Program-made: the position numbers and the translations under genes | The notes under the pieces: generated by a model | What the model was told of the DNA's origin: nothing | Seen by the model: only the letters and a program-made list of their open reading frames with translations | Database searches by the model: none | Shown here: in pieces, positions 55,891 to 64,000 of the stretch | Numbering within the stretch: the first letter of the stretch is position 1 | How the letters are laid out: the number at the start of each line of letters is the position of its first letter | Assembly: GCF_016026235.1 (NCBI RefSeq) | Contig: NZ_CP065613.1 | DNA length: 64,000 nucleotides | Source of the DNA: Escherichia coli | GTDB lineage: Bacteria > Pseudomonadota > Gammaproteobacteria > Enterobacterales > Enterobacteriaceae | Strand: one strand, 5' to 3'

Positions 55891-56939
55891 TCAGTTCGAT
55901 ACCTGGGGTATTCGACGACGACGTAGACTGTTCCATGAATAGACTGCGTTGAATAACACTACGCCAGCGGTGACGAGAAATACCGCTCTGAAACCGTAGT
56001 TCGCTGAAATCGCTGCTCCCATCAATGGTCCGGTAACGTTGCCAATATCACGAAACGATTGGTTATAGCTGAAGATACGCCCGGCGATCTGGTTGCTCGA
56101 GTTGTAAACCAACAGTGTCTGTACGGCGGGGAGTAGTGCACCATCGGCGGCACCGAGCAAAAAACGTAAAATCCCAAGTTGCAATGGCGTCTGAACGTAA
56201 GACATTGGGATCAACAGCAGTACAGAAAAGATCAGCGCTGTAATCAGGATCTTTTCGGGTCCGATTCGATCGCCAAGTTTGCCGAGTCGTGGTGCGCTTA
56301 GCAGAGCCGCCACGCCTGGCACCGAGGCGATCATGCCACTGATAAAGGCGACGTTACTGACGTTACCCGCCAGTTCGCGGACATACAGCGTCAGAATGGG
56401 GGCAATTGAGCCTGTCGCCACCTGGATGATTAACGTGGTGACAAACAGGCTGAGTACCAGTTTCGGGTTTTTAAGTGATGTCACCACTTCCCGCATGTGC
56501 AGCATCTCTTTTTTGCTGACCGGCTGGAATTTTTCTCTGATGCAGAACAGGGTGACGAAAAAGCAGAGTATGAGCACACTGGCGGTAATAAAGAATACCG
56601 GACGTAAGCCGTAGCTATCGGCGAGCAGGCCGCCAGCCATTGGGCCGAGCAACGCACCACTAACGCCGCCTGTGGAGAGCGTACCCAGCGCCCAGCCGCT
56701 TTTATTACGCGGTACTTGTGTGGCGATAAGAGCATTAGCGTTGGGGACAAATCCGCCAAGTAACCCAAGAAGCGCCCGTAGGATCAAAAACTGCCAGATA
56801 TTTTGTGCCAGTCCCATCAACACCATCACGATGCCCATGCCGAGAGCAGAGCGTAATAGCATGAGTTTTCGGCCTTTACGGTCGGCGAGTCCACCCCAAA
56901 ACGGTGAGGCGATGGCCGAAAATAAAAATGTAATGCTGA
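55891..56939 (-). pseudogene. mdtG: mdtG (MFS efflux pump), missing about the first 60 codons through insertion of a mobile element
   Basis: The reverse frame reads ...[35 protein letters not shown]... through to the stop at 55891. Recognisable MdtG sequence ends at about 56938-56940, where the composition switches to AT-rich. Confidence 0.88.
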
Positions 56940-57400
56940 TATTTGTTCCCTAAATACACTATGAGAACATACCTGTTAATTACAGGACAATATCAGGTGA
57001 ATGACCATGCAATTTAATAGTAGATTTCCAAGTATCTAAGCAGTTTTACACAGATTCTATGCAGTATCTTACAATCCCCTACACCACCTCTAAATAACAT
57101 AACTTATTGAAATATATAGAGAATCTGTAAAGCCTCTTTTCAGGGAACTATGCAGGGTGTTAGTCGTCCCTCTCCAGACACTACATATAGTGCTATATAC
57201 AGGGCCATATAACGATATATAGATGCTTGGTCACGTGGTGTAACTATCAAGAAACTTAACGATTTCCTGCGTGAAAGTTAGAAGTGATGGCTATAGTTAC
57301 CCTCCTGAATCTTCATAGTTGATTCGGTTAGTTGGGCTTGTTATGAAGATGCTTCATCCGAATCATCTACCAACCCCTAATCAACCTCATGCGCTCTATT

Positions 57401-57513
57401 AACCAGTCTCATAAGGAAGTCCTTTTGAGACACTTTCAACGTAACGGTAGAATGCACCCTCAAGTAGTCTCAAAAGGTTGTTTTTGGATTATGAGACTAA
57501 CTTTTGAGACTTC
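57401..57513. promoter_or_regulatory. res-like / operator array: five copies of CTTWTGAGAC around the recombinase promoter
   Basis: Motif positions: 57406-57415 (-), 57422-57431 (+), 57467-57476 (-), 57488-57497 (+) and 57501-57510 (+). They are arranged as two inverted pairs plus one half-site. Confidence 0.6.
57425..57453 (+). promoter_or_regulatory. Sigma-70 promoter upstream of the recombinase gene
   Basis: TTGAGA (57425-57430), 17 nt spacer, TAGAAT (57448-57453). Confidence 0.6.
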
Positions 57514-57526
57514 TAAGGGGAACATT

Positions 57527-58078
57527 ATGGCGATACTTGGATATTGCAGGGTGAGTACAGATGACCAATCCATCACTAACCAGCAAATGCAAATTGAAGA
57601 GGCAGGGTACAACATTGCTAAATGGTTCACTGATGAAGCTGTCAGTGGTTCTGTCAAAGCTTCTTTAAGAAACGGTTTCAGTAGTTTGTTAGCTTATGCA
57701 CGAGAAGGTGACACCGTAGTTGTGGTAGCTGTAGACCGTCTTGGACGTGACACAATTGATGTGTTATCAACGGTTAAAGCGCTACAGGCTAAAGGTGTGA
57801 CAGTTATCAGCCTTAGAGAAGGGTTTGACTTATCAAGCGCTATGGGTGAAGCAATGTTAGGCATTATGTCAACGTTGGCACAGCTTGAAAGAAGCTTGAT
57901 AGCAGAGCGTAGAAAGGCTGGTATTGAACGTGCTAAAGCTGAAGGGGTACATATGGGAAGACCTGTAAAAGCTTCTTCAGAGGCTGTACAGATGCTTATT
58001 TCACAAGGTAAAACGAGGTTGCAGATTCAGGAAGAGCTAGGAATCTCTAGAGCAACTTATTACAGACTTGCTAAATAA
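57527..58078 (+). CDS. Small serine recombinase (resolvase/invertase family)
   Basis: 183 aa from ATG 57527 with SD AAGGGG. Starts MAILGYCRVSTDDQ, containing the catalytic Ser. Also has VDRLGRD and a C-terminal GRP...ISRATYYRL HTH. Confidence 0.88.
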   Translation: MAILGYCRVSTDDQSITNQQMQIEEAGYNIAKWFTDEAVSGSVKASLRNGFSSLLAYAREGDTVVVVAVDRLGRDTIDVLSTVKALQAKGVTVISLREGFDLSSAMGEAMLGIMSTLAQLERSLIAERRKAGIERAKAEGVHMGRPVKASSEAVQMLISQGKTRLQIQEELGISRATYYRLAK

Positions 58079-58422
58079 GTTATTAAACAGTTACATGGAT
58101 GTGACTGATATTTGGCTTTTTTGCAAAGGGGGTGCTATATCGAGAATGTACCGTACCAAGCAGCTACAGACATCTGTTAGATATTTTCGAAGATTTTTAG
58201 AAGGGGAATTTGAAGAGGGGCTACTACGATTTTATAAAAATTTTCAGATTCTGAAAAGTTACTGTACAGAATACATACAGACATCTTTAAAGTATCTATA
58301 AAGACTTTTAAGATAAAAGATAGATATCCCAGAAAGGATATCCGTTTAGAAAGCCTGTTAAGTATCTCTTAAAAGAGAGTAAACCTTGTCAATAGTGATT
58401 GCAATAAAAATTTTTATTTCTT

Positions 58423-62649: not shown

Positions 62650-62677
62650 ATACTTTAGCTTAGAAGAGGAAAAAACA

Positions 62678-63388
62678 ATGACAAACGATTTATATTTTAA
62701 CGGTCGAAAGATTGATAGCTTCGGTGACTGGTCACCACAGACTGAACATCCGCTACATATTATTCAGCGTCAAGAGCATGACAAGCGTATTGAGCTTGAG
62801 CAAGAAATCCGAAGGTCACCAAAGGTAATTTCCTTTGTGTCCCCTGAGCCTCAAGAGATGCCTGATGTATGCAAAACTGAATCATTATTTAATCTTGAGC
62901 GTGAATATTACCCACTGCTAAAAGCACAGCGTATTAAACTAGATGATGCTTACGATGCTGTTAAGAACTTCGAAGAAACCTCGAAACCTTCAGAATATGA
63001 TATTGCTTACGAGATTAAGTCAAACCCGTTTATCTATTATGAAGGAAACTTTAATGATGGTTTTGGTACAGCGATTGAAGACGTTCCTAAAGTTCTTCAA
63101 AGTATCCCTGAAGGGTTCCGGTTAATTGATGTCAGACAAGCATTAAGGGGTTCTGGTCAATTTATTCTGATGACTGGTAAAACAGATGAAGAGATTCTTC
63201 AGTTAGCTGAAGCTAATTTGACTAAGCATTATTCCGGTAAACTGGATAAGTTAAAGCAAAAGCTTAAAAAAGAACTTGATAGCATGAAAGAACTTGTTAG
63301 TGAATATGAATCACAGAAGAAGATTGCTATGCAGGCTGATATTGAGCAGCTTACGAAGATTTCTCAGAAATATAGCAAAGCACTTTAA
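62678..63388 (+). CDS. Hypothetical protein (coiled-coil C-terminus)
   Basis: 236-aa ORF with an ATG start and SD GAGGAA. No motif recognised. Confidence 0.55.
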   Translation: MTNDLYFNGRKIDSFGDWSPQTEHPLHIIQRQEHDKRIELEQEIRRSPKVISFVSPEPQEMPDVCKTESLFNLEREYYPLLKAQRIKLDDAYDAVKNFEETSKPSEYDIAYEIKSNPFIYYEGNFNDGFGTAIEDVPKVLQSIPEGFRLIDVRQALRGSGQFILMTGKTDEEILQLAEANLTKHYSGKLDKLKQKLKKELDSMKELVSEYESQKKIAMQADIEQLTKISQKYSKAL

Positions 63389-63402
63389 TTATGAGGTGGT
63401 GA

Positions 63403-63609
63403 ATGATTGATTTAACAGAACGCTATGAGCTTATTAAAGCAATTAGCGAACGATTGAAAGAACAACCCAACAAACCAAAACGAATCAAATCATCCACCTC
63501 CTCTAAGCAAAATAACAGAATCAGAAGAATCGCTAAATGGTGTCTTGATAAATTACCAAGTGATTGTCAGATTGTCGGTGAAGATGGTAATTATTATCTG
63601 GTTAGGTAA
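63403..63609 (+). CDS. Hypothetical small basic protein
   Basis: 68-aa ORF with SD GAGGTGG. Confidence 0.45.
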   Translation: MIDLTERYELIKAISERLKEQPNKPKRIKSSTSSKQNNRIRRIAKWCLDKLPSDCQIVGEDGNYYLVR

Positions 63610-63775
63610 AAATTGGTTGGGTAGAAAATCTACGGGAGAGATTATCGATATTATTCGGTAGTTTCTCCCTTTTTTGTATGTGCACTACGTGAAATCTGTA
63701 AAGCTAATATCTACACTGAAAAATAGAATTTACGTACAACACGCTTAAACAAAGGTATGAGGTGAAAAAATATGA

Positions 63776-64000
63776 ATGAGCAAATTCACAGTTGATAGTT
63801 TTATCGTTGAACTGGGCTTCAATGAGAACGTTATTAAAGGTCTGCAAAAAGTTGAAAAGGCAGCTTTGCAGTCAGCACAAAAAATTGAACGGAATTTGAA
63901 TAGAGCGTTTAAGGTCGATACCAAGCAACTTGACAGCAATTTAACGGCTTCTTTAAAGTCAATGGAGGGGAAGATTAATAAAACTTTTGACCGTCTGGAA
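63776..64000 (+). CDS. Hypothetical protein, N-terminal 75 codons (continues beyond the window)
   Basis: ATG 63776 (MSKFTVDSFIVELGFNENVIKGLQKVEKAALQSAQKIERNL...) is open to the window end. Helical / coiled-coil character. Confidence 0.45.
   Translation, partial: MSKFTVDSFIVELGFNENVIKGLQKVEKAALQSAQKIERNLNRAFKVDTKQLDSNLTASLKSMEGKINKTFDRLE

Follow-up and report, generated by a model that had tools for sequence, protein, structure and literature searches.

What has interrupted the mdtG gene near one end of a 64,000-nucleotide stretch of Escherichia coli DNA (contig NZ_CP065613.1 of assembly GCF_016026235.1; the whole stretch is called the window here), and what is the inserted DNA likely to do? 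An earlier note on this DNA had described an A+T-rich, replicon-like element at this position and had left both its nature and its mode of integration undecided. We find in the window the left part of a chromosomal island of about 11.4 kb, which was inserted by a large serine recombinase and which carries two phage tail genes and a non-coding segment whose relatives lie in virulent phages of the genus Felixounavirus. Our best reading of the island is a satellite resembling the PLE of Vibrio cholerae, or an anti-phage island, that hijacks or poisons the tail assembly of Felix O1-type phages.

Integration into mdtG

The window region is the E. coli opgH-yceK-msyB-mdtG region. The features that define the insertion are as follows.

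55891..56939, minus strand: 3' portion of mdtG, truncated (BLASTN against K-12, 99.4% identity, the match ending at 56939)
56936..56939, no strand: attL crossover core CTGA, common to attB and the reconstructed attP; the left end of the element is at 56936-56940
Window-equivalent ~64574 (L023:11172-12420; end of the L013 contig): IS911-like insertion of the IS3 family, 1,249 bp, with a 3-bp GCA duplication

The 5' 178 bp of mdtG are missing from the window and are found displaced to the far side of the element, where they adjoin lpxL in L023, L001 and L017 (sequences used for comparison are given by L numbers). As the earlier note had supposed, the gene is interrupted and not divergent, and the A+T-richness that it reported from the mdtG break to the window edge is seen in the base composition, which falls from 0.50-0.57 GC in the flanking core genes to 0.33-0.45 over ~56750-64000. 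The element as a whole has a GC content of ~38%. Its left 7.06 kb lie in the window and the remainder continues past the window end. Draft contigs L013 and L014 are 100% identical to the window sequence, and L023, which is 99.94% identical to it over 10.6 kb, holds the complete element with the same left junction; its right junction leads into the missing 5' part of mdtG and then into lpxL. The element in L023 measures 12,609 bp including the 1,249-bp IS911-like insertion sequence (IS), for a native length of ~11.4 kb.

The left junctions are identical in the window, L001 and L017. The attB at mdtG, which is an empty site in K-12, consists of AATGTAATGCTGA and AGACAATACC on the two sides of the junction, and the reconstructed attP of GTGTTTAGGAACCCATTATACTGA and TATTTGTTCCCTAAATACAC; the latter is an imperfect dyad, and CTGA is the only part that it has in common with attB. 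At the right end of the element in L023, beyond the window, lies the gene of a 509-aa large serine recombinase with Resolvase, Recombinase and zinc-ribbon domains, and the corresponding 506-aa recombinase of L002 matches PF00239, PF07508 and PF13408. Both the domain content of the recombinase and the precision of the insertion are those of a large-serine-recombinase integrative element. These data show that the recombinase encoded past the window end integrated the element into mdtG at the CTGA core. The earlier note was right to see no integrase in the window, and the integration mechanism that it called open is settled by the recombinase at the other end, the dyad attP and the CTGA core.

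In the lineage of this strain the IS911-like element splits the tape measure gene (described below) after codon 266, ~570 bp past the window end, and draft assemblies break at this insertion. The tail step of this strain's copy is probably crippled by it.

Tail genes and a non-coding segment related to Felixounavirus

The link to a phage group comes from two features visible in the window and from a second tail gene seen in the complete relatives.

63776..64000, plus strand: start of the tape measure gene, 75 codons up to the window end; the translation matches the L002 tape measure protein
58229..58375, plus strand: Felixounavirus-like non-coding segment upstream of dam, with a hairpin at 58322-58343 and five CTNTWAAG motifs

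The tape measure protein (TMP) of full-length relatives matches PF20155 and TIGR02675, and the second tail protein, a 'baseplate' protein or tube initiator (TI), matches PF21821. The TI shares 67-80% protein identity with gp18 of phage Bas63, and 81% DNA identity over 544 bp; all 299 of its 299 phage matches are in Felixounavirus-type (Ounavirinae) genomes of ~86-90 kb. The best phage matches of the element TMP are likewise in Felixounavirus, with a full-length identity of only ~28%. It keeps the N-terminal ~45-70 residues of the phage TMP and the hub-docking C-terminal motif LLSSSYPEEE, while the middle is divergent and shorter; element TMPs measure 682-725 aa and the phage TMP 742 aa. The cryo-EM structure of Bas63 identifies gp18 as the tube initiator and has the C-terminal 25 residues of the TMP docked on the hub and the puncture apparatus (PMC12609058). 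In Bas63 the hub protein is gp20 and the puncture-apparatus protein gp21. The only phage relatives of the two element proteins are the Felixounavirus gp17 and gp18, and in a tblastn search of all element ORFs against Bas63 no ORF other than those of TMP and TI gave a match.

Two parts of the non-coding segment (58281-58362 and 58229-58262) resemble two Bas63 intergenic regions, with 87% identity over 63 bp and 88% over 34 bp, and all of the 253 phage records matched by the segment (~80 bp) are of Felixounavirus type. The motif CTNTWAAG occurs in it at 14.5 per kb, against 0.14 per kb in host DNA and 12-13 per kb in the two phage regions; a tenfold local enrichment is common to segment and phage. 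Pairing in the stem of its hairpin survives sequence changes in L019 and Bas63. Three independent features (TMP, TI and the non-coding segment) tie the island, by their sequence matches, to virulent Felixounavirus only and to no other phage group.

A separate observation concerns Bas63 itself (L005), where positions 70500-72150 form a 1.65-kb region that is free of ORFs and has CTNTWAAG and YTGTTAR at 35 per kb, against a median of 2. This region is possibly an origin, a packaging site or a regulator-binding region. The segment upstream of dam has a similar density of CTNTWAAG and a modest enrichment of YTGTTAR.

Distribution and selection

The same compact architecture is found at four chromosomal sites: within mdtG, within yecE, at the start codon of tonB and beside wrbA. 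The type of recombinase differs by site, that of the yciI-tonB copies being 31-34% identical to the mdtG and yecE types. The invariant core comprises proteins of ~101-107, 235-236 and 67-69 aa, the TMP (682-725 aa), the PF21821 protein (254-262 aa) and the integrase. It is present in 481 of the 5,426 complete E. coli genomes (~9%), at no more than 5 places per genome and with identities mostly of 60-90%, and the range of the family extends over Escherichia, Shigella and Salmonella. None of the 598 places lies on a plasmid, and no counterpart of the element turned up when it was compared by megablast with 50,697 phage records and 72,556 plasmids.

The ORFs are intact in nine of the ten loci compared; strains MRE162 (NZ_CP119404), E166 (NZ_CP095801) and ECOL-18-VL-LA-PA-Ryan-0026 (NZ_CP041392) are examples of genomes with an intact copy. 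Ratios of dN/dS are 0.16 for TI, 0.23 for the 107-aa protein, 0.29 for the 236-aa protein and 0.30 for TMP, at dS values from 0.4 to >3. The family is old, mobile and functional, and is not debris. No paper describing it was found in the literature, the coverage of which was incomplete, and a prior description is possible; published yecE prophages were considered and proved to be unrelated Stx phages and not this island.

Two further observations concern the yciI-tonB site. In the copies found there (L002:17940-17990 and 29540-29570; L019, L020, L021, L027 and L028) a 13-bp repeat, CAATGACCCTTGA, occurs at both junctions; the tonB ATG is kept, and the native promoter has been moved ~11.5 kb away, with the integrase-proximal end of the island in its place. 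Just outside the island, beside yciI, L022:1-2900 holds fragmentary tail genes of Mu-like type (for Gp48 and a glycine-rich fibre protein) with a Gin-like invertase, which appears to be the remnant of a separate mobile element.

Core proteins and conserved cis-features

Between the accessory genes and the tape measure gene the window holds three core genes and several conserved non-coding features.

61889..62212, plus strand: core 107-aa protein; AF2 model (pLDDT 68) predicts two beta-alpha-alpha units, a tandem ribbon-helix-helix like that of TraY
62314..62372, plus strand: strong promoter TTGACA-17-TG-CATAAT (11/12 sigma-70, 62314-62342) followed by a hairpin and T-run at 62350-62372
62560..62649, no strand: inverted repeat with 27-bp arms, 96% complementary, upstream of the 236-aa gene
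62678..63388, plus strand: core orphan protein of 236 aa, largely helical and with a long helix at the C-terminus
63403..63609, plus strand: core protein of 68 aa, basic, encoded immediately before the tape measure gene; found in all loci examined, with no family match
63634..63669, plus strand: intrinsic terminator-like hairpin, 15-bp stem and T-run
63685..63747 (and L002:26997-27059), plus strand: cis-element CTACGTGAA-N~38-TTTACGTAnnnCACGCTTAA, ~63 bp, flanked by the inverted decamers CTACGTGAAA and TTTCACGTAG

The top Foldseek matches of the 107-aa model are TraY chains of the F plasmid (probability 0.94, E 0.016, TM 0.43-0.53), and we assign the protein, with modest confidence in a predicted structure, to the tandem ribbon-helix-helix (RHH) proteins. 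Its homologues form 3,038 clusters at 90% identity. The 236-aa protein has no match in Pfam, PHROG, NCBIfam, PADLOC or PDB, and its AF2 model (pLDDT 59) is too poor for a fold search. The N-terminal ~95 aa are variable. Its family forms 3,087 clusters at 90% identity, yet at 50% identity it comes down to 17 representatives in a set of 1.84 billion proteins, which points to a narrow, fast-diversifying family. NCBI annotation calls this protein a 'transposase' in hundreds of genomes, a label that finds no support in Pfam, NCBIfam, PHROG or PDB.

An inverted repeat upstream of the 236-aa gene is present in 13 of 13 loci, with arms of 21-27 bp in two sequence variants, both of which keep the pairing. 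The RNA of the window copy is predicted to fold with -38 kcal/mol (z = -8.4). The loop, TCTTCTAAGT, carries a decamer that does not vary and can pair with the Shine-Dalgarno region of the 236-aa gene (62661-62670), a complementarity kept in 11 of 11 loci; this suggests some form of translational or operator control. A co-variation of operator and repressor, matching the inverted-repeat variant with the type of 107-aa protein, was considered and set aside, the association being only partial. The promoter and hairpin at 62314-62372 match no Rfam family at threshold. The cis-element lies upstream of both the TMP and the TI genes in L002, L017, L018, L019 and L001; that it might be a copy of a phage promoter was rejected, as it is absent from Bas63.

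Replication module and accessory genes

The middle part of the island in the window holds a replication module and small ORFs.

59466..60401, plus strand: replication initiator, lambda-O-like with a winged helix-turn-helix, 311 aa (PHROG replication-initiator families, E 8e-11 to 6e-4)
59809..59897, no strand: iteron array, putative origin within the initiator gene; ~four copies with a 22-bp period (TRF score 95), followed by an A+T-rich stretch
60401..60691, plus strand: 96-aa ORF, earlier called HNH-like; faint alignment to a sub-threshold HNH_3 protein of L019
60688..60873, minus strand: 61-aa ORF with one hydrophobic segment (from translation; gene-called in several relatives)
60925..60975, both strands: overlapping divergent sigma-70-like promoters, TTGTCA-17-TATTAT on the minus and TTGACA-17-TAAGAT on the plus strand, each 10/12
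61012..61302, plus strand: 96-aa ORF downstream of the divergent promoters, putative RHH-type regulator from its sequence pattern
61299..61727, plus strand: 141/142-aa accessory ORF with an HTH-like C-terminal end; no PDB or Pfam match

The replication module is interchangeable among relatives, which carry either the 311-aa O-like initiator with the 96-aa ORF, or a 183-185-aa protein with 92-aa and HNH_3-like proteins. The product of the 61-aa ORF is possibly a small membrane protein, judged by its hydrophobic segment. A homologue search with the 142-aa ORF found only 9 clusters, all from Escherichia/Shigella. Sequence searches of Pfam, PHROG, NCBIfam, PADLOC and PDB were uninformative for the 96-, 61-, 142-, 236- and 68-aa ORFs, and in the element no Rfam family at threshold and no tRNA was found.

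The left end of the island combines a long non-coding region with two accessory genes.

56940..57526, plus strand: left-end non-coding region with the attP half-site, about 560 bp, conserved among relatives
57184-57221: dyad and direct repeats, conserved; candidate res subsites
57425-57453: sigma-70-like promoter of the small recombinase gene, in the left-end region
57527..58078, plus strand: small serine recombinase of resolvase type, 183 aa (PF00239, E 6e-42, plus HTH_7); accessory gene
58423..59085, plus strand: Dam-family N6-adenine methyltransferase, 220 aa, with a C-terminal HTH (PF05869, PHROG 111); accessory gene

The non-coding region is conserved across elements with four different integrases, the first ~25-35 bp excepted. 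Repeats of TTTTGAGAC and GTCTCAAAA surround the promoter at 57425-57453. Three copies of TTTTGAGAC, one of them inverted, are found at 57421-57511, bracket this predicted promoter and are conserved in elements whose integrases differ. An autoregulatory operator and res subsites are both possible roles for them. The small recombinase is nearer to gamma-delta/Tn3 resolvase than to Gin/Hin, and its best solved relative is gamma-delta resolvase (E 6e-31). Across loci it is either a 183-aa protein on the plus strand or a 191-aa protein on the minus strand (replaced or inverted), or it is absent. PADLOC classes the Dam methyltransferase as an orphan methyltransferase; it has no phage relative above 38% identity.

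Several gene assignments of the earlier note are corroborated by these results, namely the 183-aa small serine recombinase, the Dam methyltransferase and the lambda-O-like initiator with internal iterons; the divergent promoter pair and the strong promoter with a terminated leader that it reported were located at 60925-60975 and 62314-62372. Its HNH-like gene has no Pfam match and keeps only the faint alignment listed above, and its res-like site is a plausible candidate by virtue of the conserved dyad and direct repeats. The start of the tape measure gene at 63776 and the Felixounavirus-type cargo had escaped it. Among the natures that it offered for the element, a satellite or a novel integrative element agrees with our data, while an integrated phage-plasmid does not, given the absence of plasmid copies. 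Its view of the insert as a mobile element holds, and megablast matched the insert to no phage or plasmid record.

Interpretation of the island

We think it probable, if far from certain, that the island lives at the expense of virulent Felix O1-like myophages (Felixounavirus), as PLE exploits ICP1. It lacks the gene set of a complete virion, TMP and TI being its sole structural genes, and the matches of both are specific to one helper group, as is expected of a phage satellite. Infection by a Felix O1-type phage would activate the island, possibly by way of the phage-like non-coding segment upstream of dam and the island's own RHH regulators. The island would then excise through the large serine recombinase, replicate from the iteron origin and express TMP and TI, with the small resolvase resolving replicated multimers. 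The two tail proteins would enter the baseplate-hub and tube-initiation step of the helper. The outcome would be either chimeric tails ~2.5-9 nm shorter, for transfer of the island in helper particles, or a block of helper tail assembly, and either would protect the host population.

Several observations weigh against this interpretation. The attP junctions of three integrase types are absent from IMG/VR and JGI metagenome contigs, and stand-alone contigs of ~11 kb that might have been excised circles proved to be flanked by host DNA and to be copies integrated in yecE. Searches of Pfam, PHROG, NCBIfam, PADLOC and PDB yielded nothing recognisable as a terminase small subunit, pac mimic, capsid-size factor or tail chaperone, and left the remaining core proteins as orphans. 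Insertion sequences often interrupt the TMP or integrase gene, in this strain too, a pattern that is also compatible with an element that is decaying or can be dispensed with. In the elements the phage-like non-coding segment always goes with the 220-aa dam allele and not with the core. Finally, excision, replication, packaging and phage restriction are predicted activities of the island.

Some of these points agree with the principal rival, which we regard as unlikely but which deserves weight: a pure anti-phage defence island, in which TMP and TI are dominant-negative decoys that abort Felix O1-type tail assembly, and which spreads by integrase-mediated or general transfer and is never packaged by a phage. 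No packaging function was recognised in the profile searches and no attP junction was found in the virome collections. Tail assembly is moreover a known target of defence, as with Tai (PMC11364771), Tab (PMC10884400) and Rta of PLE11, and small serine recombinases have been reported as markers of defence loci (PMC13552941). A non-transducing island with decoy tail proteins leaves the dedicated initiator and iteron origin, exchanged as a module among relatives, hard to explain without extrachromosomal replication. The two ends that the TMP keeps for incorporation and the low dN/dS of TI (0.16) point to working parts rather than poisons, and a PADLOC search brought up no protein of a known defence system.

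A decaying remnant of a prophage with Felix O1-like tail genes, with no present function, would account for there being only two structural genes left and for the common IS insertions, including that in this strain's TMP; IMG/VR also lists relatives as predicted proviral regions of isolate genomes. We nevertheless hold it to be very improbable. Four sites, whose integrases differ, show one and the same set and order of genes over ~11 kb, and purifying selection acts on every core gene, at saturating dS. There is no other phage structural, lysis or terminase gene or pseudogene, and the tblastn comparison with Bas63 gave only TMP and TI; beyond these two genes the island has no blocks colinear with the phage, which sets it apart from a defective Felixounavirus prophage. 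Felixounaviruses are themselves virulent phages of 86-90 kb, and Bas63 has no annotated integrase.

An integrative mobilisable element moved by conjugation, with the TraY-like protein as relaxosome accessory and the large inverted repeat as oriT, seems to us to have just as slight a chance. TraY chains are the best Foldseek matches of the 107-aa model, the conserved long inverted repeat adjoins the 107-aa gene, and islands with minimal transfer functions have been proposed (bioRxiv 10.64898/2026.01.13.699239). The structural match is weak (E 0.016, TM 0.43-0.53, pLDDT 68), however, and RHH folds are common among repressors; profile searches found no relaxase or coupling protein, and the conserved phage tail genes and the phage-specific non-coding segment would be left unexplained.

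Least credible of all is an integrated phage-plasmid, or a transposon with a resolvase/res module, for although the resolvase-type recombinase with its conserved upstream repeats, the initiator with iterons and the public 'transposase' label on one gene speak for it, the element has neither a megablast match among the 72,556 plasmids nor a plasmid location at any of its 598 places, it lacks partition genes, a DDE transposase domain and terminal inverted repeats, the label is without profile support, and the ends are serine-integrase att sites. A transposable Mu-like phage, suggested by the 'transposase' and 'tape measure' labels and by the scattered positions, is ruled out by the same site-specific att sites.

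Comparison with known systems

The island resembles PLE in being a compact chromosomal island with a large serine recombinase, its own initiator and origin and mostly orphan genes. The partner phage is in both cases a strictly virulent myovirus, and both carry a shorter, divergent TMP and a baseplate or tube-nucleating protein homologous to those of the helper. PLE encodes its own TMP, chaperone and baseplate hub protein, which lead to shorter chimeric tails (PMC12987554). Among PLE relatives replication modules are swapped and IS-riddled copies exist, and vibrios are so far the only hosts from which PLE-like elements have been reported (PMC9410903). The differences are nevertheless considerable. 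The element is ~11.4 kb long and is found in Escherichia, Shigella and Salmonella, whereas PLE is ~17-18 kb and has a Vibrio host. Its O-like initiator has intragenic iterons, in contrast to the RepA_N initiator and ORF-less origin of PLE, and its second tail gene encodes a gp18-like tube initiator and not BhuB; no tail chaperone is recognised. No homology to the PLE hallmarks (RepA_N initiator, NixI, CapR, LidI and TcaP) emerged from the Pfam and PHROG searches, which gave no RepA_N domain and matched the initiator to O-like families. For this element induction and transduction are predictions, and a directionality factor for its recombinase may be encoded by the phage, as in PLE.

PICIs and cf-PICIs are likewise phage-dependent integrated islands of E. 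coli with replication modules, and some cf-PICIs carry putative tmp genes, according to the legend of Extended Data Fig. 10 in PMC12987554. PICIs are characterised by a tyrosine integrase, AlpA, a primase-replicase, terS or capsid genes and temperate helpers; none of these genes was found among the window ORFs or in the full relatives, and the tail genes of the element derive from a virulent phage genus. P4-like satellites are also integrated elements of ~11 kb, widespread in E. coli and with variable accessory loci, but they have a tyrosine integrase, an alpha primase-helicase, Sid, Psu and Delta and a temperate helper of P2 type, and they have no tail genes. None of the P4 families (Psu, Delta, Sid, alpha primase, P4-type integrase) was found in Pfam, PHROG and NCBIfam searches of the element. 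With Tai, Tab and Rta of PLE11 the island would share its presumed target, tail assembly at the stage of TMP, hub and tube initiation; those proteins are small inhibitors unrelated to structural proteins, whereas the element encodes full-length structural homologues with conserved docking ends. Tn3-family and other transposons are distinguished by their ends and by the DDE transposase, for which the element gives no support and instead of whose ends it has att sites, though a resolvase-type recombinase is present.

Significance

To our knowledge, detailed work on satellites whose helpers are strictly virulent phages is limited to Vibrio cholerae, where PLE parasitises ICP1, and we know of no demonstration of satellite-encoded tape measure proteins before 2025-26. 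The island family described here is widespread, highly diverse and apparently undescribed. Two results have an immediate use: the public annotation of the 236-aa gene as a 'transposase' is corrected, and four serine-integrase attachment sites are defined, one of them overlapping the tonB start codon. We propose tentatively, as a possibility about which we remain somewhat doubtful, that these islands of E. coli, Shigella and Salmonella form a satellite family, the first for virulent Felix O1-like phages. As a counterpart of PLE in enterobacteria, independent of it, they would excise on infection through the large serine recombinase, replicate from the iteron origin, put their own proteins in place of the helper's TMP and TI to build slightly shorter chimeric tails, and curb the phage. 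The hypervariable 107-aa and 236-aa core proteins would then be the interface of an arms race with the helper. If this proposal is true, it would offer a tractable system in a model organism for the study of chimeric tail assembly, it would bear on phage therapy and biocontrol, where Felix O1-like phages are in common use, and the strategy of PLE would have evolved more than once.

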